From an uncultured Gemmatimonadales bacterium (GTDB lineage Bacteria > Verrucomicrobiota > Kiritimatiellia > CAXMRT01): a DNA stretch of 64,000 nt. A program made the translations under genes and the position numbers. Within the stretch, counting starts at the first letter, position 1. Each line of letters begins with the position of its first letter. A model generated the notes under the pieces. That model did not search any database. It had not been told where the DNA came from and was given only the letters and a program-made list of their open reading frames with translations. Positions 41,005-62,361 of the stretch are shown piece after piece. The stretch is from the NCBI GenBank assembly GCA_964196025.1, contig CAXMRT010000214.1:5233-69232 (forward strand), in the 5' to 3' direction.

Positions 41005-42471
41005 CTAGCGAAACTCGTTTAAGGTATAATGCACCGAGTCATGCAGCAGCAGCTCGCCATCTTTCGATGTGAGTGCTGGTAAATGAAGAACATGCACGTT
41101 GCCTTTCACGCGGCCGTCAACGACCAGGTCGATCGACTTTCCGTCTTGCCCAATCGTGACGGATTGAATCACCGGCTCCGACTTGTCGACCTCAGGGCTA
41201 CCGTAACCACTCTTATAAATATAGGTATGGCTGGTCATCAACATTTTCGTCACGTCCGCAACAGACGCTGGATCGATCTCTTTGGTAAAGGTCAGCTTCC
41301 ACCCCTTCTTTGAGAGCCGCATAGTGAAAATTTCAAACGGTAATTTTCCTGTCCAGTTCGCGCGCTCCAAGCGAAACGAGTGCGGCCCCTTCGAGCCCCA
41401 ACCGCGCTCGGTGCCACCAACGAACAAGGCGCCGTCTGGCGACATGCGCACCGAGACGCTTCCCGACCCGAAACCGCTCAAGAATGGAATCGCTGCACCC
41501 TGATACACACCGTTCACAACTTCTAGGTCGCAACGCGTGATATTCGAAAAACCCTGATCCAACACCAGCAACTGACCTGCGAACGGACCAAAGTTTCCCT
41601 TCGACGAATCCGGCTCAATGCCACTCGATGATTTTCCTAACTTTCCATGTGTCAAAATGATCGCGGGTGGCACGAACTCAGGTATGCGCTTGCGCTCAAT
41701 CTCAATTCGGCTATCACTCACCGGATCCGCTGGCCGCTTCCCGATCGCATCCGTCAGGTCATAGTAAATATTCCCACTCGGGTTCCCCTGGAAGGACCCC
41801 ACTTTCAAATGCTTCAAGCAGGACGATCCGTTCCACAAACCCTGATTGTCACAATAGAACATGTCACCATTGATGTTGTTTCCAATCCCGCCTGGCGACC
41901 GAATACCACTTGTCGTGGGAATCATCTTACCGTCTTTGCTGACCCTCAAGCACCACCCACGGAAATCACTTTTCGCACCGCCTGAGCCGGTCAGACACAT
42001 CACCAACCACATGTTACCGTCTTTGTCATGCCGTGAGCCAAAGGCATACTCATGATAGTCCCCGTTGATCCCCCAATCGCTGCTCATGCTATCAAAGACA
42101 TCCGCGCGACCATCACCCGTCACATCCTTCATGCGGGTCACCTCGCAACGCTGTGCCGTCCACAGGTAGCCATCGTAGTACGACAAGCCAATTGGCTCAT
42201 GCAAGCCCTGTGCGAACGGCGTCCAAACCGTCTCTTTCGCCGGCGTCTCCCAGGCATTCTTTATGGTGTAGATGTCACCACGCCGCGAACAGACCGCAAG
42301 AGTCTTGTCAGGCATCAACTCAATCCCGACCGCCTCTAATACCACACCCTCCGGAACCGGCACTTCGGTAATGGTGTAATAGTCTGACTCTTTGGCTTTG
42401 GTCGCGGCCATCACCGTCGACGCCACCAGCATGCTCGTAACCATCCCTGCTAAAATCTGTTTCATTTCCAT
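41005..42471 (-). CDS. Secreted beta-propeller protein, glucose/sorbosone-dehydrogenase-like (PVC membrane-bound-dehydrogenase-type domain)
   Basis: Signal peptide. The blade-like repeats and overall composition resemble the N-terminal propeller of large PVC dehydrogenase/heme-binding proteins. Overlaps the upstream gene by 10 nt (same operon). Assignment by resemblance only. Confidence 0.45.
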   Translation of the reverse strand: MEMKQILAGMVTSMLVASTVMAATKAKESDYYTITEVPVPEGVVLEAVGIELMPDKTLAVCSRRGDIYTIKNAWETPAKETVWTPFAQGLHEPIGLSYYDGYLWTAQRCEVTRMKDVTGDGRADVFDSMSSDWGINGDYHEYAFGSRHDKDGNMWLVMCLTGSGGAKSDFRGWCLRVSKDGKMIPTTSGIRSPGGIGNNINGDMFYCDNQGLWNGSSCLKHLKVGSFQGNPSGNIYYDLTDAIGKRPADPVSDSRIEIERKRIPEFVPPAIILTHGKLGKSSSGIEPDSSKGNFGPFAGQLLVLDQGFSNITRCDLEVVNGVYQGAAIPFLSGFGSGSVSVRMSPDGALFVGGTERGWGSKGPHSFRLERANWTGKLPFEIFTMRLSKKGWKLTFTKEIDPASVADVTKMLMTSHTYIYKSGYGSPEVDKSEPVIQSVTIGQDGKSIDLVVDGRVKGNVHVLHLPALTSKDGELLLHDSVHYTLNEFR

Positions 42472-44240
42472 GTCAACACCTGCTCAATCGTTGCGTTATC
42501 ACCCTCGAACTCAATCGGGACAATCAGCTCTGTTGTGTCCCCGACCTTCCGCAACAGCGGCTTACAGCCTGCGAGAGTCATCGTCAACTCTGTCCCAGCC
42601 AGCTGATACCCCCCTCCAGCTTCCGTCAGGTCCCCGCGTGCGAGTAGAAAACATAGCGTCCCCGGCGGCTTCTTTCCCGACACCACAATCGTTCGTCGAA
42701 TGCCTTTCTCCTCACCCTTCACGGCCGGCACGAAGGTGTCAGTCACCTCCAAGCCATGGAACTCGTAGCGAAAGGTCGGGATCCGCTGCTCATTTAACAT
42801 GTAGCCCTTAAAGATGAACGGCTGGGTCCGCATGGTGCTCTTTGCACGAAAGTCGGTACGCGGCCACGTCGTCACGGCCACATCATCCAACACCGCGAAA
42901 GGCACCTCGTCCACAAAGGTAACCACCCGGTCGCCCTCGGGAGGCTGACTCCCTGATCCACGCCCCACCCAATGCTTACCGCCCGACATGAATGCACCCG
43001 TCCACGCCAAGGCCAAACGCATATTATCCGCATCCCAGGCGACGTTCACGCCACCCGGCAACCCTACGCCAATCGCCCGCACGCCGGCACCACTAATGAA
43101 ATTCCGGTACATCACCGCTTCCGTCTCTGTCGGCTCAATCGGAATCGACACCGAGGGCCGCTTCCTCCGCCCCCCCGAGCGAGCGGTGTCCGACAATGGC
43201 AAGGGGCGCTTCATTCCCGGCCCGCTGAGCGCCAGCGACAAACTATGCTGACCGCTTTTATCAAAATAGCCGACTTTCAACGCATGCGGACCCTTCGTCA
43301 ACTCGACAGCACCCTTCTTCATCGTGTCCGCATGAACACCGTCGTTATCCACAACCGTCTTACCGTCGATGACAAGCTGCGACCCGTCATCCGATGACAA
43401 GTGAAAGGTATAGTTACCCTCTACCGGAATCGTCACGGTTCCTTCATACAAGACCGCGGTCCCAGGCTTCACGCCTGCTGTCTTCGTACTGATTTTGCCG
43501 CTCTTCAAGGGGCCCTCTCGCAACACCTTCATCGTAGTGAAATCGGGCACTTTATCACCCTTATACGCATAGCTCTTAAACGTCAGGCCGCTCAACAACG
43601 AGCCACTACCCACCGTCATCGTGCCCTTCATCAAAGCCGCATGTCCCGGCACAGAACACACATACGGGTAGGCACCCGTCTTCGCCGGCGCTTTGAAGAA
43701 AACAGACTGTGACTCGTTCTGAAGCAAGAGCGCGGTGTTCACGAACAACTTGTCGTGCTTCGGAATGTAGCCCATGTCCAAACCCTTATCGCCCAGCGCC
43801 CACGCAGCTTGCGCAACGGCCATACCCAGTTTCGCATCACCTTTCTGACAAATCAGTAAGTTGTGCGCCATCTCATCACGATTGATAAACAGTAGTCGCA
43901 CGGCCTGATTAGGCGCGACCTTAAATGCCGTCACGTCATACAACATTTTTTGCGGAACCGTCGAAATTAGAATCGTCTTTTGAGCGCTGCCAAAACCCTT
44001 CGGGGCCGCATTTTTCTTCGCCCACGTCTCCGCTTTCTTGCGAGCCCCTGCCGACAACGCAGTCAAGGCCGTCGCGGTCCGTTTCGCCTTCGGGTCCGAT
44101 AGATCCACGAGAACCAAGCCCTGCTTATTCACATCATAGATATGACCCGACAAACGCTTCCCGTCCTTCAGCTCCCACGTCAATCCAGAAGCCCCAGCGA
44201 CAGAGGCCCCCAACACCAAACTCAACATCAAACTCTTCAT
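42462..44240 (-). CDS. Secreted azurin-like cupredoxin plus PA14-domain protein
   Basis: ATG 44240 is preceded by GGAGGG, giving signal MKSLMLSLVLGASVAGASG. Type-1 copper motif YPYVCSVPGHAALMKGTMTV (azurin-like C…H…M). PA14-like block GNYTFHLSSDDGSQLVIDGKTVVDNDG. C-terminal ~230 aa unassigned. Confidence 0.6.
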   Translation of the reverse strand: MKSLMLSLVLGASVAGASGLTWELKDGKRLSGHIYDVNKQGLVLVDLSDPKAKRTATALTALSAGARKKAETWAKKNAAPKGFGSAQKTILISTVPQKMLYDVTAFKVAPNQAVRLLFINRDEMAHNLLICQKGDAKLGMAVAQAAWALGDKGLDMGYIPKHDKLFVNTALLLQNESQSVFFKAPAKTGAYPYVCSVPGHAALMKGTMTVGSGSLLSGLTFKSYAYKGDKVPDFTTMKVLREGPLKSGKISTKTAGVKPGTAVLYEGTVTIPVEGNYTFHLSSDDGSQLVIDGKTVVDNDGVHADTMKKGAVELTKGPHALKVGYFDKSGQHSLSLALSGPGMKRPLPLSDTARSGGRRKRPSVSIPIEPTETEAVMYRNFISGAGVRAIGVGLPGGVNVAWDADNMRLALAWTGAFMSGGKHWVGRGSGSQPPEGDRVVTFVDEVPFAVLDDVAVTTWPRTDFRAKSTMRTQPFIFKGYMLNEQRIPTFRYEFHGLEVTDTFVPAVKGEEKGIRRTIVVSGKKPPGTLCFLLARGDLTEAGGGYQLAGTELTMTLAGCKPLLRKVGDTTELIVPIEFEGDNATIEQVLTWK

Positions 44241-44326
44241 AAACCCTCCATAAGTAAAAGACATGCGACAATATACTCGCCCATGACCCACATCACAACG
44301 TCAGATCCCATATCCAGATAATCGCC

Positions 44327-44408
44327 GGGTAAGACGCACTACACAAGATCCACCACCACACGAATACTCTTTGCTAACCTACGGGTGCTGGTGTAGTGCG
44401 TGTGACCC
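44327..44408. repeat. Palindromic intergenic element, copy 1 (21-bp inverted arms)
   Basis: GGGTAAGACGCACTACACAAG (44327-44347) and CTGGTGTAGTGCGTGTGACCC (44388-44408) flank a 40-nt spacer. Followed by a conserved tail …TCTTGACGAAGGAGGACAGGGCTCGCGCCCCCGC (to about 44458). Confidence 0.7.
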
Positions 44409-44495
44409 AGTCTATCCGCCGGAGTCTTGACGAAGGAGGACAGGGCTCGCGCCCCCGCAACCAAATCCCTCATGCAGAGTGAGCGCCTTCCCGCT

Positions 44496-44579
44496 GGGTA
44501 AGACGCACTACACAAGAGCCACCGCCACCGGAATACTTGTTTTGTTAATCTATGGGTGCTTGTGTAGTGCGTGTGACCC
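44496..44579. repeat. Palindromic intergenic element, copy 2
   Basis: Identical left arm (44496-44516) and near-identical right arm CTTGTGTAGTGCGTGTGACCC (44559-44579). Spacer ~80% identical to copy 1. Followed by the GGGCTCGCGCCCCCGC tail. Confidence 0.7.
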
Positions 44580-44681
44580 GTAGGGCTCGCGCCCCCGCTT
44601 ACCCAATCACGCAACCCACGTGAGCCGCTCCCCGCTAGCCTACAAACGGTGCTCCACACGCTCCAGCCAGCGTGCTAGTAT

Positions 44682-45560
44682 ATGCCTATGCACCTTATCA
44701 AATGCGCGATCATCCCCGCTCTGATTCTCCAGCTTCTATGTTCGGGTTGCCAGTACGGCCCGAAACGGGACCAAGGCTCTTTCAAAAGCACAGCACTCAT
44801 GCAGAAAAGCGCCATCGTGGCCTTCACCTACCACGACCTCATCTACCGGCCGGCACAAGGCATGTCGGCATTTCCTGATGGAGGCATTCCAAAATATTTG
44901 AACGACGGCTCCGTGCTCTGCATCTATGATCGCAAACAAGGGAAACTCCAGACATTAATGGATGAAGAGAATACGCTCTGGAGCCACGGTAGTGGTGCGC
45001 TGTACATCGTGACCGCCCGCGGTAACGCCATGGTCGTCAGCCAGTCCGGACAACTGCGAAAAGATCTCGCGACCATCTATACCCGCCATCATATCCTTAA
45101 CATCGCAACGAAGGCCCATGACACCTTTGACCTCAGCGACGACCTGCTTATGCACGGCCGCAAACCGGGTCCGCTCTATCTTGCTGATGACAACGGGACC
45201 CTCGTGATCATCACAAAGGCTCAGGACGCGGAATCTGGCAACAAGGCTATCCCCCAAATATGGGTAAGGCACATGGGGGGAGAGTATCTGCACGCCGGCA
45301 CATCCGCGCACTACCAGAAAACCCTAGGACGGGATGTCATCTACTGGAATCCCTCCGACCGGCAGTACTATGCCTTTCATATGGACGACAAAACCACCCG
45401 CCGCCTTGAGGGTTACCGGCCGCCTACAATGACACAGGTGACCGAAGGCGCTCGCGTCGGTTCGTTAGGCACCACGGTGGATGTGGGCATCCGGACCCAA
45501 GGCACCTGGCACTATCAACCGCTACCCATCACGCCCGACGATGTCAGAAAGAGTGATTGA
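44682..45560 (+). CDS. Hypothetical lipoprotein
   Basis: 292-aa ORF with lipoprotein-like signal (ALILQLLCSGCQ). No recognisable domain. Confidence 0.45.
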   Translation: MPMHLIKCAIIPALILQLLCSGCQYGPKRDQGSFKSTALMQKSAIVAFTYHDLIYRPAQGMSAFPDGGIPKYLNDGSVLCIYDRKQGKLQTLMDEENTLWSHGSGALYIVTARGNAMVVSQSGQLRKDLATIYTRHHILNIATKAHDTFDLSDDLLMHGRKPGPLYLADDNGTLVIITKAQDAESGNKAIPQIWVRHMGGEYLHAGTSAHYQKTLGRDVIYWNPSDRQYYAFHMDDKTTRRLEGYRPPTMTQVTEGARVGSLGTTVDVGIRTQGTWHYQPLPITPDDVRKSD

Positions 45561-45679: not shown

Positions 45680-46150
45680 GTGAGTATTCTATCCAAGACG
45701 TGTCTGTACGGATTGCGGGCGATGATTTATCTAGCCGCATCCGAAGACCATAATGATCAGGAATTCGTTTCAGTCCGGAAAATTGCGGATGAATTGGATA
45801 TTTCCTTTCATTTTCTCACCAAAATTTTCCAAACATTGAACAAAGAAGAACTCGTGATCTCCTGCAGGGGCCCAAAAGGAGGCGTCGCGCTTGGTCGCCC
45901 CGCTAAAGATATCGACCTTCTTGACATCATTGAAAAAATCGATGGCTCGCAACGCCTCGACTCCTGTCTGATGGGGCTGCCAACGTGCAGCGATGAGTCC
46001 CCCTGCCCCCTCCACGACCAGTGGAAGGAAAACAGAAAGGGGCTCAAAAAGCTCTTCACTGAATCCAATCTAGGGGAGCTAGTCAGCAACATGAAATCGT
46101 CGAATATCCGGATAAACGAGACGGGTATCATTTCACTGGGCGATGACTAG
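45680..46150 (+). CDS. nsrR: Rrf2-family transcriptional regulator (NsrR/IscR-like, Fe-S cysteines present)
   Basis: N-terminal wHTH (MSILSKTCLYGLRAMIYLA…VSVRKIADELDIS) and three clustered Cys (CLMGLPTCSDESPC). Sits immediately upstream of nirK. Confidence 0.7.
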   Translation: MSILSKTCLYGLRAMIYLAASEDHNDQEFVSVRKIADELDISFHFLTKIFQTLNKEELVISCRGPKGGVALGRPAKDIDLLDIIEKIDGSQRLDSCLMGLPTCSDESPCPLHDQWKENRKGLKKLFTESNLGELVSNMKSSNIRINETGIISLGDD

Positions 46151-46180: not shown

Positions 46181-46224
46181 TTGACATTTGACCCATTCTA
46201 GACTAATTAAGATATAAGAGTCTT
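46181..46224 (+). promoter_or_regulatory. Candidate nirK promoter with overlapping palindromic operator
   Basis: TTGACA (46181-46186), 17-nt spacer, TAATTA (46204-46209). The imperfect palindrome AAGATATAAGAGTCTT (46209-46224) overlaps the -10/+1, a position consistent with an Rrf2 repressor site. Pattern match only. Confidence 0.3.
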
Positions 46225-46340
46225 TTATCGGTAATAGTCCTTTCCGCTGGTGGATGGGGCCTGACCCGAAAAACCGAAAAACAGGAGAATCAAACGGCCG
46301 GCACATCCCTGATGTACCGACTGGGAGAGGAAATGGAGTC

Positions 46341-47777
46341 ATGAAAACACGACACTATAAACCAGTAATATTGACCTTGGCCGCTATAATGAGCCTTGGT
46401 TTTGGACTGCAGACCGCAGACGCCCAAATAAAGGGCACAGAAAAGGCCGTTCTATTGAAGGCCCCTCAGGTTCCGCCCGTGATCACGCGAACACACGCCA
46501 CCAAAGTGATCGTTGAGATGGAAGTGAAGGAATATGTCGATAGACTCGCTGATGGTGTTGAGTACACGTTCTGGGGCTTTGGCGGCTTTGTTCCGGGCCC
46601 GTTTATCCGTGTCCGCGAAGGCGATCATGTCGAGTTTCACCTAAACAATCATCCAGATAATAAACTACCGCATAACATCGACCTGCATGCGGTGACTGGA
46701 CCAGGCGGTGGCGCGGCCTCTTCCTTTACCGCTCCCGGGCACAGCTCGACCTTCTCATTCAAGGTCCTCAATCCAGGCGTGTATGTTTACCATTGTGCGA
46801 CTGCACCCGTGGGCATGCATATTGCCAATGGCATGTATGGCCTGATTCAGGTACAGCCCAAGGAAGGCCTGCCTAAGGTTGATAAAGAATACTATGTCAT
46901 GCAGAGCGAATTCTATACAGCAGGCCGCTATGGCGAAAAGGGTCATCAGCCTTTCTCTATGGAAAAAGCGCTGGATGAACGTCCCGACTACGTCGTGTTC
47001 AACGGTTCTGTCGGTGCCTTGGTTGGCGACAATGCCATTAACGCCAAAGTTGGCGAAAACGTGCGCCTGTACGTCGGTAATGGCGGTCCAAACCTTGTCT
47101 CCTCTTTCCATGTGATTGGAGAGATTTTCGACAAAGTGAACATTGAAGGCGGCGACCTGGTGAACAAGAACGTTCAGACAACACTTGTCCCTGCCGGTGG
47201 AGCTGCCGTGGTGGAATTTAAGGTTGATGTTCCTGGAACGTTCATTATTGTGGATCACTCCATCTTCCGGACATTCAACAAGGGCTCCCTAGGCATGTTG
47301 AAAGTGACTGGAAAGGCTAACCCAGATCTGTATTCCGGAAAAACCGAGGACAGCGTCTATCAGCCTGAAGGTCAGCCAACGCTTACTACGCCACCTGCTA
47401 AGGTCCAGAAAATGACCAAGGCAGAACGCATAAAAACCGGCGAAAGGCTGTACAACACCAGCTGCTTTGCCTGCCATCAGTCCAACGGGAAAGGATTACC
47501 CAAGATTTTCCCTCCTCTGGCAAAATCCGATTACCTGCTCGCGGATGTTGATCGCGCGATCAGCGGAATTATCTATGGACAAAAAGGTCCTATGAAGGTA
47601 AATGGTGAACCGTACAACATGATCATGACACCCGTAAATCTCACAGATGACGAGATCGCAAGTGTCATGACCTTCGTCCTCAACAACTGGGGCAACAGTG
47701 GAGACGCGGTCACACCCGAGCGCGTGACGAAGATCCGCAAAAAAGGCCCTGCAAAAAATGCAGTAACGTCGAAATAG
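46341..47777 (+). CDS. nirK: Copper-containing nitrite reductase NirK with C-terminal cytochrome c domain
   Basis: ATG 46341 follows GAGAGG and gives signal [28 protein letters not shown]. Type-1/type-2 Cu blocks (…[10 protein letters not shown]…, [21 protein letters not shown]). C-terminal CxxCH (CFACHQ, ~47464-47478) marks a fused class I cytochrome c. Confidence 0.85.
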
Positions 47778-47787
47778 GGAGAAGAGC

Positions 47788-48603
47788 TTGAACCTCAGTC
47801 GGTCAATAGTCGCACTTGTTTTATTGACTGCTGGGGCGGCGGGCGCGGGTGATCTACCCGCACCGCCGAAAGCGCCTCTGGGAATGGTCTACATTGCTCC
47901 CGGCGAATATGAACCCCTTTTTAAATCAGAAGGAAAGAAAGCGGTCTCCGCTTTCTTCATGGACCGCCACCCCGTAACGAACGCCGAGTATCTCGACTTT
48001 GTAAAAGTAAATCCAAAGTGGCGAAAGTCACGTGTCAGACGCATTTTCGCGGACCACTCCTACCTAACCAAATGGGTGTCCGACGACACGCCAGGTCCAG
48101 ATCCTGAAAAATCACTAAACAGTCCTGTTGTTCATATCTCATGGCACGCCGCTCGTGCTTACGCCAAATGGAAGGGCAAGCGAATCCCCTCTCAGGCAGA
48201 ATGGGAGTATGCGGCTTCTGCCAGCAAAACGAAGCCCAACGGAAAAGAAGATCCTGACCATTACCGCTATATCCTCGATTGGTATTCACGCCCTACGCCT
48301 AAAGTAATGCCCGCGGTGGGCTCCACCTATAAAAACTACTGGGGGCTTTACGACATGCATGGCCTAGTCTGGGAGTGGGTGTCCGATTTCAACACCGCTC
48401 TAGTCACAGGAGAGTCACGGGGAGATGCCGGCTTGGAGCGTCAACTTTTTTGCGGGAGCGGCTCGGTCGGCGCCTCTGACTTCAAAGATTACGCCGCCTT
48501 CATGCGCTACGCTCTACGCAGTAGCTTAGAAGCTGATTTTACCACGGCCAATCTCGGTTTTCGTTGTGCAAAAAGTATCAACATACCCAAAAAGAAAGAC
48601 TAA
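47788..48603 (+). CDS. nirV: NirV (formylglycine-generating-enzyme/SUMF1-family protein)
   Basis: TTG start after a GGGAG RBS, 10 nt past nirK. FGE-sulfatase fold blocks (…VHISWHAARAYAKWKGKRIPSQAEWEYAA…, YWGLYDMHGLVWEWV). The nirK-nirV arrangement is well known. Confidence 0.65.
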   Translation: MNLSRSIVALVLLTAGAAGAGDLPAPPKAPLGMVYIAPGEYEPLFKSEGKKAVSAFFMDRHPVTNAEYLDFVKVNPKWRKSRVRRIFADHSYLTKWVSDDTPGPDPEKSLNSPVVHISWHAARAYAKWKGKRIPSQAEWEYAASASKTKPNGKEDPDHYRYILDWYSRPTPKVMPAVGSTYKNYWGLYDMHGLVWEWVSDFNTALVTGESRGDAGLERQLFCGSGSVGASDFKDYAAFMRYALRSSLEADFTTANLGFRCAKSINIPKKKD

Positions 48604-48605
48604 CC

Positions 48606-49232
48606 ATGAAACACGTTATCCCTTTTTCTCTCATCGCACTCGCCTTGGGGTGCACCTCATGCTCGACCATCCCACAAGAAGCAGCCTGCTGCAAGGCGCC
48701 ACTAGAAAGCGTCCAAAATGCACCGCTCTCACAGGAGTCGCTCTATCACCTGGAATCAACCTGGACGAGTCAGGAGGCCAAGACCATTTCACTGGATCAC
48801 TTCAAAGGCTCGCCAGTTTTGCTGACCATGTTCTTCAGCAATTGCGAATATGCCTGCCCGATTCTGGTTGAAAAAATGCGGTCAACCGTGGAGCAGCTGT
48901 CAGCGGATGACGCCTCACAACTACAGAAGGTCCTCATTTCTTTTGATGTGGAACGAGACACCCCTGCCGTTTTGAAAAAACACGCGATTGATCGCGGCTT
49001 AAGCAACACCGACTGGACCCTGCTGCACGGTAGCGCGGATGATGTCCTTGAAATCGCGGCGGTTCTGGGCATTCGTTATCGCCAAGAAAAGAATGGCAGT
49101 TTCGCCCATTCCAATATCATCACCCTGCTGGATAGAGATGGGTCCATCGCCTATCAGTTGAAAGGTCTAGAGTCCGAGTCCGAAGACTTACTCAAGGCCA
49201 TTAAAGAGGTCTGCGCGGATTCGAAACGCTGA
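48606..49232 (+). CDS. SCO1/SenC-family copper chaperone (thioredoxin fold), lipoprotein
   Basis: ATG 48606 lies 2 nt after the nirV stop. Lipobox (LALGCTSCS) and CxxxC copper site (MFFSNCEYACP). Confidence 0.7.
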   Translation: MKHVIPFSLIALALGCTSCSTIPQEAACCKAPLESVQNAPLSQESLYHLESTWTSQEAKTISLDHFKGSPVLLTMFFSNCEYACPILVEKMRSTVEQLSADDASQLQKVLISFDVERDTPAVLKKHAIDRGLSNTDWTLLHGSADDVLEIAAVLGIRYRQEKNGSFAHSNIITLLDRDGSIAYQLKGLESESEDLLKAIKEVCADSKR

Positions 49233-51260
49233 TCAGTCACTCGGTTCGTGACTCTTGGGTGCATCGGGATCCTGCACACCTCGCCCATCATAATCAAACA
49301 GCACAATCTCCCCCGCGCGGACCTGCAACTCATTGTCATATAAAACGCGTGGCTCGGTCACACCATCAACGATAAGAAGCGCGCGGACATCATGGGTCCC
49401 CGGCTCAAGCTCCAGGTCATGACCAAACAAGACAAGTCGACCATCACGGCGAGGCTTCAAATGCTCACGCAAGGCCTCCTGTCCGTCTAGCTCGAGTAGC
49501 AAGGTATAATCAATCGGAACGCGAACGACTTTTTGAGGTAGCCGCATATGGGCAGGAGTCGAACTCAACTCTTCCTCGGTCCATGCCCGCGCAGACTCAA
49601 CACCGTTTCCCGGTAACTCAAGCATCAGTCTGAAAACGCCTTCTGTGGGCGCTGTCCCCAAGTCCTTCATACTCATGGCCGCGATCGCCAGTACGATGAC
49701 AGAATGCGCAATAGTGGTTCGCACAATAGACGACCAGCGCGCGGTCGGTGTTAAGGCTCCGCTCCCCGACTCCGCTGATTTTTCAAGCAAGCCTCTCACA
49801 TGGGTCTCTATCAGGCCATACTCAGAACCCGCAGCGGAGATCAGCTGTATGCGCGTAAGATCCGTATCTTGCGACAAATGCGGGCCCGCTCTCCCCAACA
49901 ATCGCCCCAGCGCAAGTTCATGGCCGCGCCGATTCACACAATTTTCCTCCGGACAGGACACCACTAGAACCGATGGGACTTTTTTCATGAGATGCTCAAC
50001 CGCGTAGGCATGCACGCTGCCTGTACAGGCCACCGCATAAGGACTTATTGAAGGATATCGGAGCGACAATTTGTGAACCGTATTCTGCATGCTGCGATTC
50101 GACTCACAATAGATCAGGCATAACTCCGGGATTTTCTCACCCAAGGCATCAAGATAGCGCTCAGCTGCCTGCAGTTGATCATCACCCTTGCGGCCCGGGG
50201 GACCCACATTATAATCGTCACAACTACCCGCACACAGACCGCAACTGACACACTTGGCGGGATTGACCATCGCAAATTGACGACGACTGCCATCGTCCCG
50301 CTTCAGCATATCAATGGCCTCAAACGGACAATCTTTATAACACTGCATGCAACCAGCACAGGCGTCCGTATCTACCGTAGATTTGCGTTCCGGCCGCCGG
50401 ACACGCCACCACCAAGGCACCATCAGAAGCCCCAGTGAGCATACAGTAAAACCCACGGCAACAACGCCCGGCCCCCAACGGTCCAACAGCGGCAACCAGA
50501 AACCGGAAAATAAATCCGTTGGAAGCCGTCCAGTTAAAGCCTGCAGATCGGCTTTTGGTAAAAGTGGGGCCGAGATCAGAACCGAGCAAATAAGCAATAC
50601 AACCAACAAGGGCACAAACACACTATTCATCGGCAGCCAACGCGCACGATTAAGCCGCGCGGTATGTATCCAGATACCGGTAACCATCACAAGGGGTATC
50701 GCCACATGCAGAAACAGGTTCATAAAGAAAAATGACCCCGTAAGAGGTTCTGCCCCGCTGAACGTACGCATAATCTGGTGATTAAGAAAGGGCGCCAAGG
50801 CGATCATTCTAGCGCCGGCATTTGCCAGCCATTGCCCATGGGTGTCCCACGCCATGACATACCCGGTCCACGTCGACAACATCAACGCAAACAATAAAAC
50901 CGACCCACTGATCCAGGCCAATACACGTGGCCCCCAAGTCCGCCCCTGTATCATCATTTGCACAACATGAAAAACAACCGCCACGATGGCGATATCCGTA
51001 GCATAACGATGCATCGCCCGAATCCAACGGCCGAGATAGGCCTGATCATGGATGCGTTGCAACGACTCATACGGGTGTGACACGCTGTAAAAAAAGACTA
51101 GATATAGTCCCGTAACAAGGAGGAGCAGGAGCATCCCGACAGCCAAGGTTCCGCTACGATAAAGTGGGTTGTAGGCCGAACGGTACAGCGTGTCAAATAA
51201 ACGGATCAGCGGTGCAGTTAGGCCTTCAAGCAGGCGTTGAAGGATCGTACGTTGTTTCAT
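49233..51260 (-). CDS. Membrane fusion protein: cytochrome b N-terminal-like domain + 2x[4Fe-4S] ferredoxin domain + C-terminal domain of unknown function
   Basis: About five TM helices with conserved His pairs (…RAMHRYATDIAIVAVVFHV…; …FLHVAIPLV…). Two Cys clusters (CAGCMQCYKDCP…, CVSCGLCAGSCDD), then a ~300-aa soluble domain. Its stop codon abuts the stop of the convergent sco gene (shared TGATCA). Confidence 0.55.
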   Translation of the reverse strand: MKQRTILQRLLEGLTAPLIRLFDTLYRSAYNPLYRSGTLAVGMLLLLLVTGLYLVFFYSVSHPYESLQRIHDQAYLGRWIRAMHRYATDIAIVAVVFHVVQMMIQGRTWGPRVLAWISGSVLLFALMLSTWTGYVMAWDTHGQWLANAGARMIALAPFLNHQIMRTFSGAEPLTGSFFFMNLFLHVAIPLVMVTGIWIHTARLNRARWLPMNSVFVPLLVVLLICSVLISAPLLPKADLQALTGRLPTDLFSGFWLPLLDRWGPGVVAVGFTVCSLGLLMVPWWWRVRRPERKSTVDTDACAGCMQCYKDCPFEAIDMLKRDDGSRRQFAMVNPAKCVSCGLCAGSCDDYNVGPPGRKGDDQLQAAERYLDALGEKIPELCLIYCESNRSMQNTVHKLSLRYPSISPYAVACTGSVHAYAVEHLMKKVPSVLVVSCPEENCVNRRGHELALGRLLGRAGPHLSQDTDLTRIQLISAAGSEYGLIETHVRGLLEKSAESGSGALTPTARWSSIVRTTIAHSVIVLAIAAMSMKDLGTAPTEGVFRLMLELPGNGVESARAWTEEELSSTPAHMRLPQKVVRVPIDYTLLLELDGQEALREHLKPRRDGRLVLFGHDLELEPGTHDVRALLIVDGVTEPRVLYDNELQVRAGEIVLFDYDGRGVQDPDAPKSHEPSD

Positions 51261-51265
51261 GTGGT

Positions 51266-52156
51266 TCAGTTCTCGCTTTCAAGTCTTCGGACGGCATCCG
51301 TTAACCATTGTACCCCTGGACTGTTAAAGGTATACGCGATGCGCCCTTGCGCATCCAATACATAGACCATCGGCGGATGATAAACATCCCCGTTCTGTTC
51401 ATTGCGACTAATCGGTACCTTGTACTCCCTTAGCACATTCAGTACCTCGTCAATCTCACCGGTATAAAATCGTGTTAACGGCCCCATTTCCCATTTCCCA
51501 GCAAACGATGTCATTTCGGTTTGACGGTCGCGCCAAGGGTCGAGCGACACCACCAGCATGGGCGTGTTATCATTAAGCTCCTCAGACGCTTCCTTCAGAT
51601 CATTAAGTAATGCCGGGCAAACAGTCGTACAATGCGAAAAGGCAAAGGTTAAAATAAGCGGACGCCCCTTGAAATCTGCAGGCCCGGTCACCTCTCCATG
51701 TTGATCATGCAGTCGGAAGTTAAATGCCGGATCCTGGGTCCGCAGATAATGCTCCGGTAACGGCTCTGTGTTACCGGACCCGTAATCGGCCCGCGCAAGT
51801 GCCAGGCCGACGGTCACCCGCTCAGACACCCATACCGCTTCAGTCGACACGCCAAGCACGCACAAAAGAATGGCGACCTTGCCAAGCCACGACCCATAGA
51901 GGGCTGCGCCCCCACTCTTCAACTCATCACGATAGACGAGGATAAGGGCCAGCAACAAGCTGAGCGGACTGCCAATCAGGACCGTCCAGCCGTAGGGCTC
52001 CGGTAAGCCTGACTCCGTGCGGCCGAAGCAGGCAGTCTGAGCCTGTAGCATCCACTCAGGGGTGGACTCCGGCATGCTGAAGAAGGCAAACCCCCAGAGA
52101 ACCATCGTGGCCGCTAGCCAGCCGGCCACAAGAAACATAGACGCTAGAGGGGGCAT
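51266..52156 (-). CDS. SCO1/SenC-family copper chaperone with N-terminal membrane domain
   Basis: Three N-terminal TM helices, then a thioredoxin-fold domain with FAFSHCTTVCP (CxxxC). Confidence 0.65.
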   Translation of the reverse strand: MPPLASMFLVAGWLAATMVLWGFAFFSMPESTPEWMLQAQTACFGRTESGLPEPYGWTVLIGSPLSLLLALILVYRDELKSGGAALYGSWLGKVAILLCVLGVSTEAVWVSERVTVGLALARADYGSGNTEPLPEHYLRTQDPAFNFRLHDQHGEVTGPADFKGRPLILTFAFSHCTTVCPALLNDLKEASEELNDNTPMLVVSLDPWRDRQTEMTSFAGKWEMGPLTRFYTGEIDEVLNVLREYKVPISRNEQNGDVYHPPMVYVLDAQGRIAYTFNSPGVQWLTDAVRRLESEN

Positions 52157-52165
52157 GACAAGCGC

Positions 52166-53896
52166 TTACCCAATCTTCCAGAGCTGCGCCAGCATTTTCC
52201 AGTTTACAAAGTAATAGAGGACAAAGAAGAACAGGAAGATCATAACCAGAATGAACGTACCTGGAGCACCCTTCTTATGAACAGCCTCGACCTCTGGACC
52301 CTCATGCACCTGAGCCGGCAAGGAAAGGACTCCTGGTGGCACGTGGCCGCGGGCGGCTTCAAGAGTCTCGCCATCAAACTTACGACCAAAAAATACAGAG
52401 GCCACAGTAATCAGCACATAGGAGACTAATCCGGTCACCGCAAGAATTCCGCCAATTCCCATACCCGCCTGCATAAGAGCAACGGCAGGGTTAAATTCAA
52501 CCTGGAACAGTGCGTCCGCGAAACTGGAGTCATAATGTCGGCGAGGGACACCGAACAGTCCCATAAAGGTCATGCTCACCGACATGAGCGTAATTCCGAC
52601 ACCGAATAGATACGGCTGAATCCGCGCCAGCTTATACATACGAATCTGCTTCTGAAAAATAAGCGGAATCAGATAGTAGGTCACCGCCATAAAGGACAAG
52701 GCGGTCCCCCCCACCACAGTTACATGGAAGTGGCCAGGAATTCTCATGGTGTTGTGGGCCATGATGTTGATCTGTTCCGTTCCGAGTGTCACACCGGTAA
52801 TTCCTCCAAGGAATCCGAAGATCACGAGCGAAAGAAACATTCCGGAAAAGCCTGGATCGCCCCAAGGCGCTTTCCGCAGCCACTCAAACGTGCCGTTAGT
52901 GTAGCCCCTTAAGCGCTGTCCCATTTCAATACCGGCGGGAACAGTAAAGCCATGAATCATGCTGGCAAGAACAGCCAAGTACATCGCGTAGCTGGTATTC
53001 CAAATTTTCCACGCTGGCCCCATACCAGGATCAACCAGAAGGTGATGCGCAGACGCCATGGAGATGAAGAGAATGTAGAGGAAAAAAGCCATACGACTGA
53101 TCTTCTCATTCAAGACGACCCCGCCGACGGTCAACCCAGCCAGCAGGTACCAAATCGACACCATTGCAGCCATGTTAATCTGCTGCGAGCAGTGACCCAG
53201 TCCCCAGAAAAGAAGACGGTAAACTTGCGGGTCGATCTCCATCAATCCCAGCGACCAGAGAAAGGTCGGAATGAAAATCAATGCGCCATGAACAAGCGTC
53301 ACCACGGCAATGATCGCCGCTGTCAGTGCGCCAAACGTAACCAACGGCATGCTGCCCGGATACGTCTTCTCTTTCTTGGCTACTAATATCGTGGCTATAA
53401 ACAGGGACGACCCTATTAATGCACCAACCGCAAAAAGAATAATTCCCAGATAATAAAGAGGGTGTGCTTTAAGAGGCGGGTAGGAGGTAAACGTCACATC
53501 AGCTCGGCCAGAGAAGACCATGATCTCCACCATGATAGCGCCCACCAGCATCAGGGCAAAAGCCACCCATCCCAATTTGGGTGCCGGTAATCGACAATTT
53601 AATATGATCGGTCCCGCAAAGTATAAAACCGACATCTCAAAAAAGATGATAAAGAATATCAACATATTGAGACCGTGAGCGGTCAACAGACGGTAATACC
53701 ACACCGGCGGCAGCAGATGCACAGCCTCCCAGCGGGTTAACACGAGTAATAGAGCAGAAATACCACCGATCAAAAGACAAACGACCGCGACAACCGCATT
53801 CCACTTGATTAGGGACTCTGCCTGGCTGTCGATCTTCAGACCTGACACCGGACATTGCCGGAATTTTCCGACGATTTTTTTTGTTAACTCACTCAC
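52166..53896 (-). CDS. Heme-copper oxidoreductase superfamily subunit I, divergent (active-site Tyr absent; candidate NO reductase)
   Basis: 12-TM protein. Helix-II heme His (LTAHGLNMLIFFIIFF), CuB His in WGLGHCSQQ (canonical W-x-G-HPEVY, here HCSQQ: Tyr replaced by Gln; encoded ~53180-53207), HH pair (SAHHLLVDPG), and helix-X H-x-H (GHFHVTVVGGT). Confidence 0.8.
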   Translation of the reverse strand: MSELTKKIVGKFRQCPVSGLKIDSQAESLIKWNAVVAVVCLLIGGISALLLVLTRWEAVHLLPPVWYYRLLTAHGLNMLIFFIIFFEMSVLYFAGPIILNCRLPAPKLGWVAFALMLVGAIMVEIMVFSGRADVTFTSYPPLKAHPLYYLGIILFAVGALIGSSLFIATILVAKKEKTYPGSMPLVTFGALTAAIIAVVTLVHGALIFIPTFLWSLGLMEIDPQVYRLLFWGLGHCSQQINMAAMVSIWYLLAGLTVGGVVLNEKISRMAFFLYILFISMASAHHLLVDPGMGPAWKIWNTSYAMYLAVLASMIHGFTVPAGIEMGQRLRGYTNGTFEWLRKAPWGDPGFSGMFLSLVIFGFLGGITGVTLGTEQINIMAHNTMRIPGHFHVTVVGGTALSFMAVTYYLIPLIFQKQIRMYKLARIQPYLFGVGITLMSVSMTFMGLFGVPRRHYDSSFADALFQVEFNPAVALMQAGMGIGGILAVTGLVSYVLITVASVFFGRKFDGETLEAARGHVPPGVLSLPAQVHEGPEVEAVHKKGAPGTFILVMIFLFFFVLYYFVNWKMLAQLWKIG

Positions 53897-53905
53897 TGTA
53901 GCCTC

Positions 53906-54454
53906 CTACTCTTCCACAATGACTTTGCCAACCATCAAATGATGACCCAGTCCGCAGAACTCGTTACAAATAATTTTATACTCACCAACATCATTGGGCG
54001 TCATCTTCAACCCGTAGTCATAGCCGGGAACAACTTGAATATTGACGTTCACAGGAAACAGACTAAATCCGTGATTCAAATCTGAACTCGAAAGATGAAT
54101 CGTATATTCGGCTCCCTTTTTGAGCTTCAGAATAGGTGTCCACTGCCACATCCTGCCGAGAAGATACACATCACTCCCTGGTGGCGGTTCGACAATTGGA
54201 ATTCCCTGCTCTTCTCCGACTTTGTACTCTTCCGTGAACGCCATAACTCTCTCGACGAATTTCGCCGGTTCGACTTTGGCTCGGATGCCGGTTGGGTTCT
54301 GGCCACCCAAGAGATGCCAGATAGGCATCATCGCAAAAAGCACCAGACACCAAATAAAGGATATGGTCACCCATATCTTTTCCTGCTTGGCTGCGGGCTT
54401 CCACCACACTCCCTCTGGGGGAACTATCCCAGAATGCATTTTTCTATCAGACAT
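53906..54454 (-). CDS. Heme-copper oxidase subunit II-like cupredoxin with intact CuA motif
   Basis: N-terminal TM helix, then a cupredoxin domain with H…C-x-E-x-C-G-x2-H-x2-M (SDLNHGFS…ICNEFCGLGHHLMVGK). Confidence 0.7.
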   Translation of the reverse strand: MSDRKMHSGIVPPEGVWWKPAAKQEKIWVTISFIWCLVLFAMMPIWHLLGGQNPTGIRAKVEPAKFVERVMAFTEEYKVGEEQGIPIVEPPPGSDVYLLGRMWQWTPILKLKKGAEYTIHLSSSDLNHGFSLFPVNVNIQVVPGYDYGLKMTPNDVGEYKIICNEFCGLGHHLMVGKVIVEE

Positions 54455-54469
54455 ATTAACTCCTTAGAA

Positions 54470-54619
54470 TCAGGGTAGTTTCGCCTCTGGAAGGCTTAAA
54501 ATTTCAACCATTCCCCAAATGGTGTAAAACGCAAACATCACCACCATTCCCAACACCAGCAAGAGGATGGGCTTCTCCATCATGCGCTGCCCGAAGGGTA
54601 TTTCTTCATTATCCGACAT
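54470..54619 (-). CDS. Unannotated 49-aa single-TM peptide, first gene of the oxidase-like operon
   Basis: ATG (54619) follows GGGGA. Translation MSDNEEIPFGQRMMEKPILLLVLGMVVMFAFYTIWGMVEILSLPEAKLP. Ends 15 nt before the subunit II start. Below the 60-aa cutoff of the ORF track. Confidence 0.4.
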   Translation of the reverse strand: MSDNEEIPFGQRMMEKPILLLVLGMVVMFAFYTIWGMVEILSLPEAKLP

Positions 54620-54804
54620 TTCATCCCCTTTGCTTATTTCCTAGTTTCATACCTTTTTATCTTAAATTAGCCCTAAGTCAACAAAATGTCTCAATAAAAA
54701 TGATTTTTGCGCCCGAATGACGCTTCGGGGCTCCTCGGAAACGAGAGCACCGACATTCACCAGGGCCAGCCCCCCAGAAGTTACTCTCTTCTGACCAACA
54801 GATG

Positions 54805-54874
54805 CTTGTGTAGTGCGTATGACCCAGTCTATCCGCCGGCGTCTTGACGAAGGAGGAAAGGGCTCGCGCCCCCA
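54805..54874. repeat. Palindromic intergenic element, copy 3 (truncated: right arm + tail only)
   Basis: CTTGTGTAGTGCGTATGACCC (54805-54825) plus a tail AGTCTATCCGCCGGCGTCTTGACGAAGGAGGAAAGGGCTCGCGCCCCC that is ~90% identical to 44409-44455. Confidence 0.7.
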
Positions 54875-57093: not shown

Positions 57094-57160
57094 TCAGTAT
57101 TCAGTGGTCAGTATTCAGTGGCCAGTATTCAGTGGCCAGTAAACAGTAATCAGTAATCAG
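57094..57160. repeat. 14-bp tandem repeat (YCAGTATTCAGTGG-like) about 4.8 copies
   Basis: TCAGTATTCAGTGG x2, CCAGTATTCAGTGG, CCAGTAAACAGTAA, TCAGTAATCAG. Confidence 0.8.
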
Positions 57161-57162
57161 AG

Positions 57163-57500
57163 CCGTCCGCACAACCCAAGCTAACGCATAACCCAATCCA
57201 GCTCGCCCACACACAGGCGAGCTCCTCCCGTGTTTTACGTCCGCCCAAAGGCGAGCGTAAATCGTGCCCCTTATGGGTGGCGCTTCGCGTCCCGCAGGGA
57301 TTTGTATTTCATGGGGCGGTGTTGTATTAGCTCCAAGCTTGCCACGCCGAACCGTCCGCACAACCCAAGCTAACGCATAACCCAAATCCAGCTCGCCCAA
57401 ACTCAGGCGAGCTCCTCCCGTGTTTTACGTCCGCCCAAAGGCGAGCGTAAATCGTGCCCCCTATGGGTGGCGCTTCGCGTCCCGCAGGGATTTTTTGTTG
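57163..57500. repeat. 189-bp period direct tandem duplication (two near-identical ~150-bp units) with internal hairpins
   Basis: Unit 1 spans 57163-57351 and unit 2 runs from 57352 to ~57500; over 95% identical across CCGTCCGCACAACCCAAGCTAACGCATAACCCAA…GGGTGGCGCTTCGCGTCCCGCAGGGATTT. Each unit contains the hairpin AGCTCGCC-(8 nt)-GGCGAGCT. A partial third copy sits at ~57633-57680. Confidence 0.8.
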
Positions 57501-57676
57501 GGGAGCCTGTGTTGCGTCAGATCCAAGGCGCTGATTGAATCGCTGCACTGGTGTGCGCGTTTCAGTCTGCAACGCAGGAGATGATGTGACACAGGCTCCC
57601 CAATAAAAAACGAAGCGCCACCCATTCGTGACCCAAGCCCCCACCCAAGCTAACGCAGAACCCAAGCTCTACGCCC

Positions 57677-62278: not shown

Positions 62279-62361
62279 GGGTAAGCCGCAACTACACCAA
62301 ACCCAACAGCACAGATATGCTCTCATCTAACCTACGGATGCTTGTGTAGTGCGTCTGACCC
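62279..62361. repeat. Palindromic intergenic element, copy 4
   Basis: GGGTAAGCCGCAACTACACCAA (62279-62300) and CTTGTGTAGTGCGTCTGACCC (62341-62361) flank a 40-nt spacer ending …TCTAACCTACGGATG (compare copy 1 …GCTAACCTACGGGTG). Confidence 0.65.

Follow-up and report, generated by a model that had tools for sequence, protein, structure and literature searches.

Does the heme-copper oxidoreductase encoded beside the nitrite reductase gene nirK in an uncultured, probable Kiritimatiellia bacterium reduce nitric oxide (NO) or oxygen? The window analyzed here is a 64,000-nt stretch of contig CAXMRT010000214.1, whose open reading frames (ORFs) were assigned domains with Pfam and NCBIfam profile searches. 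Five ORFs form a tight operon on the minus strand (49233-54619, spacing 5-15 nt) encoding, in order, a membrane peptide of 49 aa, subunit II with a CuA site, heme-copper subunit I, a membrane Sco protein, and a 675-aa cytochrome b/Fe-S protein. An earlier reading made from the letters alone (the sequence-only reading) had described this five-gene operon, taken its last product for a cytochrome b/Fe-S fusion, and proposed an atypical NO reductase (NOR); all five ORFs were recovered, and the last matches both cytochrome b and 2x[4Fe-4S] ferredoxin profiles. We put the probability at roughly 80% that the operon encodes an NO reductase of the eNOR family, a group derived from the B-family heme-copper oxidoreductases, along with its assembly and accessory proteins. 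Diagnostic residues, the structure of the operon, and a tree without bootstrap support underlie this placement. The nirK-adjoining operon itself is real, intact, and well conserved.

Relatives of subunit I were sought in one representative genome per species, yielding 371 stretches of DNA; counts given per 80 loci refer to the best 80 of these 371, and three plasmid-borne relatives, from Defluviimonas (55% identity), Thermomicrobium (48%), and Thermus (47%), were added. Among solved structures, subunit I is closest to the B-family ba3 oxidase of Thermus thermophilus (E 3e-50, ~30% identity). To provide the ba3 numbering, residues 57-490 of this oxidase were transcribed from the corresponding alignment and then aligned to the window protein together with its relatives. 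All six histidine ligands are kept, as had been claimed, with H74, H235, H284, H285, H389, and H391 corresponding to ba3 H72, H233, H282, H283, H384, and H386; in the window protein, the low-spin heme has His/His ligation (H74/H391). The cross-linked tyrosine of helix VI (ba3 Tyr237) is replaced by Gln239. The loss of this residue therefore stands, although the change previously written as GHPEVY to GHCSQQ is better expressed as H-x-x-Q-Q-[IV]-N, given that within the motif G-H-x-x-Q-Q-[IV]-N (hereafter Q-Q) the glutamines at +3 and +4 and the asparagine at +6 are invariant in 84 relatives. The H-P-x-V-Y motif that marks B-family oxidases occurs in six plasmid ba3-type sequences, while the window has H-C-S-Q-Q at this site.

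Another helix does not appear to supply the missing tyrosine, a possibility that the sequence-only reading had raised. No tyrosine was found at the C-family position of helix VII, six residues before the His-His pair, where the window protein has Ile278. The only nearby invariant tyrosine, Y274, lies 10 residues before the pair, at a position occupied by Phe in ba3; by helix geometry it would sit at K-channel depth, too deep for an active-site role, and it may replace the lost Tyr244 (ba3 numbering). Inspection of the proton-channel residues, also proposed earlier, suggests that a B-family-like K-channel analogue is kept. The equivalent of ba3 Ser309, S312, is retained in 83 of 84 relatives, T318 and Y250 are also conserved, and the polar strip N300-T301-S302-Y303 and H315 are invariant among relatives. 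A buried glutamate in helix II, Glu87 (codon ~53636-53638), is a family-specific feature, invariant in all 84 Q-Q relatives and replaced by Ala, Ile, or Leu in ba3-type oxidases. Overall, the ba3 oxidase shares with the window enzyme its fold, the six histidines, a CuA subunit II with a single transmembrane (TM) helix, a small helix subunit (IIa), and residues Y248, S309, and T315, but the two differ by Y237 to Q, V236 to Q, W239 to N, Y244 to V, T312 to H, and S261 to N, in addition to the new Glu87.

Subunit II contains the full CuA ligand set, as previously claimed, in the motifs DLNHGF and CNEFCGLGHHLM (Cx3Cx3Hx2M; overall H-x34-C-x3-C-x3-H-x2-M), which are conserved across loci. The copper chaperone predicted earlier was confirmed by an SCO1/SenC profile match; it presumably serves CuA assembly, and relatives occur in 79/80 genome-collection loci, L003 being the exception, mostly directly after subunit I. 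The 49-aa peptide returned no match in Pfam or NCBIfam, but tblastn placed relatives (40-71% identity) directly upstream of subunit II in 78/80 genome-collection loci, and the two exceptions (L026 and L041) both begin inside subunit II. This peptide is likely the counterpart of ba3 subunit IIa and of Bacillus CbaC; small peptides of ~46 aa are also present in Bacillus CuA-NOR clusters (PMC3475470).

Published descriptions of the Tyr-less families allow the NOR-type reading to be narrowed. At the tyrosine position, O2 reductases have Tyr, cNOR and qNOR have Glu, sNOR and CuANOR/bNOR have Asn, and eNOR has Gln (PMC8756737 Table A4, after Hemp and Gennis 2008; PMC3475470), and the conserved Gln sets eNOR apart (PMC8756737, Table A4 and methods). 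The window protein thus lacks the Asn that marks sNOR and bNOR. The B1 subfamily, eNOR, and bNOR are reported to retain the Ser309 equivalent and sNOR to lack it (PMC11214002), so the near-invariance of this serine here also departs from sNOR. In nNOR the active-site residues are those of cNOR/qNOR (Glu) and heme ligation is His/Met (PMC11214002), as opposed to Gln239 and His/His in the window. Members of gNOR are reported to have Asp in place of one active-site His (PMC8756737 Table A4; PMC3475470) and a subunit II without CuA ligands, whereas all three active-site histidines are present here and the CuA site is complete. The Thermus relative (L084, Thermus thermophilus plasmid pHB5018d, 6307-8665) carries Lys at the second low-spin heme ligand (GHFK), which matches the His and Lys ligation reported for some eNORs (PMC11214002) and thereby favors this family.

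Operon structure points the same way. The eNOR operon published for Ferrigenium straubiae carries genes for subunits II and I, heme o synthase, Sco1, and a 'scaffold' protein, together with cytochrome b and [Fe-S] domain proteins (bioRxiv 10.64898/2026.01.22.701106), the same architecture as the window operon and the Defluviimonas plasmid, except that heme o synthase is present in only some relatives of the window (adjacent in just 5/85 loci). Members described as eNOR (those of R. marinus and F. straubiae, and the 'cytochrome a1-like' hemoprotein of M. magnetotacticum) have in common with the window enzyme the Tyr to Gln exchange, six histidines, and a CuA subunit II, as well as a B-family-like K-channel with the Ser309 equivalent, the His/Lys variant seen in one window relative, a Sco and a cytochrome b/[Fe-S] protein in the operon, and an association with nitrite reductase genes. 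The purified R. marinus enzyme reduces NO (kcat ~0.7 per s at 25 C) and showed no O2 reduction with several donors (PMC11214002), which supports an NO reductase reading; as a member of that family, the window enzyme most likely behaves in the same way. The earlier inference of a NOR-type enzyme from tyrosine loss, six histidines, CuA, a chaperone, and nirK is therefore upheld and narrowed to eNOR. The word 'atypical' should be dropped, because a name for the family has existed since 2008 and its biochemical validation dates from 2024: the enzyme is a further member of a described family and not a new kind of enzyme.

The subunit I family is large (at least 8000 clusters matched), and its top matches bear no more specific name than 'cytochrome c oxidase subunit I' or 'cbb3-type'. 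The nearest named relatives come from Kiritimatiellia metagenome-assembled genomes (77% identity). The best 80 of the 371 loci share 65-77% identity and span more than a dozen phyla, with lineages including Kiritimatiellia, Bdellovibrionota, Myxococcota, Methylomirabilota/Rokubacteria, Acidobacteriota, Gemmatimonadota, Verrucomicrobiota, Actinomycetota, and others. Such identity across many lineages indicates extensive horizontal spread of a highly conserved cluster. Within the plasmid collection, the Q-Q type was found only in Defluviimonas, Thermus, and Thermomicrobium; plasmid matches from Deinococcus, Geobacillus, Brevibacillus, and haloarchaea were considered as sNOR or eNOR references and rejected, as all are Tyr-bearing ba3-type oxidases. 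A protein search seeded with the Defluviimonas protein returned Rhodobacterales only (at least 80% identity) and no ammonia oxidizers.

In order to place subunit I, full-length neighbors were taken from a search of 1.84 billion cluster representatives. They comprise Q-Q sequences (P0247, P0248, P0251), Tyr-bearing sequences with H-x-x-Q-Y-[VI]-N (P0253, P0254, P0255, P0271; 36-44% identity), and ordinary H-P-x-V-Y oxidases (~30-35% identity). In the neighbor-joining tree, the window protein belongs to a monophyletic Q-Q clade that is sister to the Tyr-bearing (Q-Y) clade. The sequence-only reading had named phylogeny as the check on whether subunit I belongs within an O2-reductase family, and this tree, although unbootstrapped, sets it apart from the ba3-type oxidases. 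The Q-Y clade, nearest in the tree, shares the Gln at +3, the Asn at +6, Ser309, and a His at the ba3 T312 position, but keeps the tyrosine and so presumably reduces O2; it looks like an O2-reducing sister group from which eNOR arose by the Tyr to Gln change. Since eNOR has been reported to cluster with the 'K' oxygen reductase family (bioRxiv 10.1101/592808), the Q-Y clade is possibly that family. As a separate observation, six heme-copper homologues (P0290, P0315, P0317, P0362, P0381, P0396) contain H-x-x-H-Y-[IV]-P in helix VI and have tyrosines aligned with ba3 His282 (6/6) and His384 (5/6; Arg in P0396), an unusual ligand set.

Several points weigh against the eNOR assignment. The tree is a distance-based neighbor-joining tree without bootstrap support, and the placement is indirect, with eNOR (R. 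marinus, M. magnetotacticum), sNOR, bNOR, and nNOR compared by description only. Identity between the window subclade and other Q-Q lineages is no more than 40-55%, and the characterized enzyme may belong to a different eNOR subclade. Neither ctaA nor ctaB is encoded in the operon, and no heme A or heme O synthase gene was found in the 64-kb window, though eNOR carries heme As and many eNOR operons include ctaA, a trait that not every member of the family shows. Finally, the promoter of the window eNOR operon holds only a degenerate copy of the candidate operator described below.

We weighed these points together with three other explanations. One is that the operon encodes a different CuA-type NOR without the tyrosine (sNOR, bNOR, or nNOR), or a sister family, so far undescribed, with only the Gln in common. 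An sNOR was favored at the outset because of the Sco gene in the operon and the precedent of the ammonia oxidizer sNOR cluster, norSY-senC-orf1 (PMC4940428); the Bacillus arrangement cbaCBA-senC-cbaD is similarly reminiscent (PMC4940428, PMC3475470). Indeed, sNOR and the bNOR/qCuANOR of Bacillus azotoformans share with the window a B-family-derived CuA two-subunit core, a small peptide, a Sco/SenC protein, and the loss of the tyrosine, Methylomirabilota, reported carriers of sNOR (PMC11214002), are among the close relatives, and all of these families were compared with the window through published descriptions. However, Sco belongs to the published eNOR operon too (bioRxiv 10.64898/2026.01.22.701106), and the fourth gene of sNOR/bNOR clusters encodes a ~190-aa membrane protein with six TM helices (PMC3475470) rather than a 675-aa protein. 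The sNOR assignment was rejected on Gln versus Asn (PMC3475470, PMC8756737), the size of orf1, and the presence of the Ser309 equivalent, and nNOR is opposed by its Glu and His/Met ligation, which leaves this group of explanations improbable.

Slightly harder to sustain is a high-affinity terminal O2 reductase of B-family lineage with NO reduction as a side activity, as argued for the sNOR of Nitrosomonas europaea; sNOR transcription goes up when O2 is limiting, and a function as an oxidase has been suggested (bioRxiv 10.1101/765727). The closest solved structure is that of an oxidase, and the CuA subunit and K-channel-like residues are retained, but Gln stands in all 84 relatives in place of the tyrosine required for four-electron O2 reduction, Ile278 occupies the C-family position, and Y274 is probably too deep to substitute. 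The behavior of the R. marinus enzyme toward O2 and the repeated linkage of the cluster to nirK also argue against an oxidase, which we consider quite improbable. A different chemistry altogether, such as NO dismutation, N2O reduction, or turnover of another small molecule, would give the cytochrome b/Fe-S partner a role in a different electron flow. NO dismutase or N2O reductase roles have been suggested for other Tyr-less heme-copper families, and the conserved partner is unexplained; however, those families are related to qNOR/cNOR and not to the B family (PMC11214002), and the one characterized enzyme with this active-site signature makes N2O from NO, so this explanation seems very improbable.

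For an eNOR, the neighborhood supports a module in which nitrite is converted to NO and then to N2O. The NirK protein, which carries a fused cytochrome c domain, would reduce nitrite to NO in the periplasm, where carriers would reduce the CuA center of subunit II. Electrons would then pass from CuA to the low-spin heme and on to the high-spin heme/non-heme metal site of subunit I, at which 2 NO + 2 e- + 2 H+ would yield N2O + H2O; because the redox-active tyrosine is replaced by Gln239, the fourth electron needed for O2 reduction would not be required. Protons would probably be drawn from the cytoplasm via the K-channel analogue (Y250, N263, Y274, N300-Y303, S312, H315, and T318), and entry from this side would make the reaction electrogenic. 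The 49-aa peptide would act as a structural subunit and the two Sco proteins would load copper. Genomes such as this one are scored as lacking NO reductase, and recognition of a combined nirK and eNOR module would imply nitrite-to-N2O capacity in a probable Kiritimatiellia bacterium with sulfatase neighbor genes. No paper on a nirK and NOR module in Kiritimatiellia was found in the literature searched.

The N-terminal part of the 675-aa protein is a cytochrome b6-like di-heme domain (His84/98 and His185/199, H-x13-H; six TM helices altogether, counting two additional ones), followed by a cytoplasmic 2x[4Fe-4S] ferredoxin (Cys301-311, Cys337-347) and an MvhD/FlpD-like Cys domain (~381-441), an arrangement that resembles the C-terminus of HdrA2. 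PDB matches are accordingly to cytochrome b6/b and to HdrA/NuoI ferredoxin domains. A seventh TM helix (511-529) leads into a periplasmic domain (~530-675, ~145 aa) with a His571-Met572 pair that is invariant in the alignment; this domain was modeled as a beta-sandwich (pLDDT 88), and a structure search with the model gave generic beta-sandwich matches only, with no informative relative. In Defluviimonas, the periplasmic domain is encoded as a separate gene rather than fused as it is here. Relatives are full-length (~650-750 aa), bear generic names only, and are found in 66/80 genome-collection loci and in the Defluviimonas plasmid locus (L081); of the 14/80 loci without one, 8 end at or just after the Sco gene. 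The protein is therefore a conserved, near-constant partner of this eNOR clade, while a 2026 preprint describes the cytochrome b/Fe-S protein as 'rather unusual' in one organism.

The most likely role of the protein is that of an electron-transfer module connecting the enzyme with the quinone pool or with a cytoplasmic donor. The earlier description of it as a putative quinol-oxidizing module overstates what the sequence shows. A stronger version, which we hold only tentatively and think unlikely, is that it is an integral electron-input subunit that would couple quinol or a low-potential cytoplasmic donor to reduction of NO and possibly nitrite; if true, this would represent a new type of NOR supercomplex, workable without a bc1 complex. 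Alternatively, it could possibly be an oxygen-independent maturation factor for the modified heme of the enzyme.

The plus-strand operon that converges on the eNOR operon consists of an Rrf2-family regulator gene, nirK, nirV, and a second sco gene, and its stop codon touches that of the 675-aa gene. The sequence-only reading had described the eNOR operon as abutting nirK-nirV; the convergence holds, but the second sco gene lies between nirV and the operon. The second sco also accompanies nirK-nirV in related loci, and nirK-nirV-sco is found beside the eNOR cluster in ~13/80 loci, in convergent, divergent, and co-linear arrangements, a variety that indicates functional linkage rather than inherited synteny. 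The Thermus plasmid locus has a NirK-like multicopper oxidase, an Rrf2 regulator, and a DUF542 (ScdA/YtfE-like) gene as neighbors, without a Sco or cytochrome b/Fe-S gene. The true start of NirK is likely at 46341, which would give a signal peptide.

The Rrf2 protein is a candidate NO or nitrite sensor for both operons, and it would probably co-regulate them. A possible binding site is the imperfect 5-6-5 inverted repeat ARGAT-N6-GTCYT in the nirK promoter, which is the sole exact match in the window and is not significant alone. In seven related loci from different phyla, the same motif precedes the first eNOR gene by 30-140 nt (L001 6254-6269, L002 6235-6250, L003 1258-1273, L004 6234-6249, L010 6139-6154, L018 1295-1310, and L061 6156-6171), out of 11 occurrences in ~1.1 Mb. 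This recurrence suggests that the motif is a candidate for a shared Rrf2/NsrR-type operator.

Features of the window region with nirK and the probable eNOR operon, with supporting matches
Feature	Coordinates	Strand	Evidence or remarks
Secreted protein, 609 aa, plastocyanin/azurin-like copper domain and PA14 domain	42462-44291	-	just outside the nirK-eNOR block
Rrf2-family regulator (NsrR/IscR-like)	45680-46150	+	PF02082 E 1e-28; under the cut-offs of the NsrR and IscR equivalog models
Candidate operator AAGATATAAGAGTCTT (ARGAT-N6-GTCYT)	46209-46224	+	nirK promoter, just after the Rrf2 gene
NirK with fused C-terminal cytochrome c domain	46254-47777	+	TIGR02376 E 2e-104, above cut-off; PF00034 at residues 394-479
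NirV (FGE-sulfatase/SUMF1-like domain), usual nirK partner	47788-48603	+	PF03781 E 3e-38
Second Sco/SenC, lipoprotein-like, last gene of nirK operon	48564-49232	+	PF02630 E 2e-18; start Met likely 48606
675-aa fusion protein	49233-51260	-	cytochrome b E 1e-15, 2x[4Fe-4S] ferredoxin, FlpD/MvhD-like stretch (Pfam, NCBIfam)
Sco/SenC copper chaperone, 296 aa, three N-terminal TM helices, CTTVCP motif	51266-52156	-	PF02630 E 4e-23
eNOR subunit I (probable; catalytic), 576 aa	52166-53896	-	PF00115 E 2e-68; motif GHCSQQIN
eNOR subunit II (probable), 182 aa, one TM helix (27-45) and periplasmic cupredoxin	53906-54454	-	PF00116, TIGR02866 CoxB, NosZ C-terminal CuA domain
49-aa single-helix membrane peptide, first gene of operon	54470-54619	-	one TM helix predicted, residues 18-36
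Degenerate operator copy AAGATAAAAAGGTATG, upstream of the 49-aa gene	54648-54663	-	left half-site intact, right half-site with two mismatches; weak

The block is surrounded by sulfatase, PA14, and DUF1080-type genes, which agree with a Kiritimatiellia origin. A 292-aa ORF at 44682-45560 has no relatives in any of the related loci and lies outside the module. In a scan of the window, the frequency of promoter-like sites did not exceed that in shuffled sequence; terminator-like sites reached roughly double the shuffled expectation (22 vs. 11.4, sd 3.2), but nearly all fall within coding sequence and none was located at an operon end.

Two families of repeats were also identified in the window. 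A REP-like (repetitive extragenic palindrome-like) dispersed repeat with the core GTGTAGTGCGTRTGACCC occurs six times, compared with 0.04 occurrences expected by chance, with copies at 44323-44599 (two hairpin-forming pairs), 54782-54873 (92 nt, 89% identical), and 62344-62361. Copies of this element bracket the 10.4-kb nirK-eNOR block. A mobile island bounded by direct repeats was considered and is not supported, since the element is present again at 62.3 kb, which speaks against a boundary specific to an island. The second family, at 57160-57665, consists of ~190-nt tandem units (146-nt copies, 88% identical) and a 34-nt inverted repeat, and sits in the intergenic sequence that separates a small membrane ORF from an acetyltransferase-like ORF.

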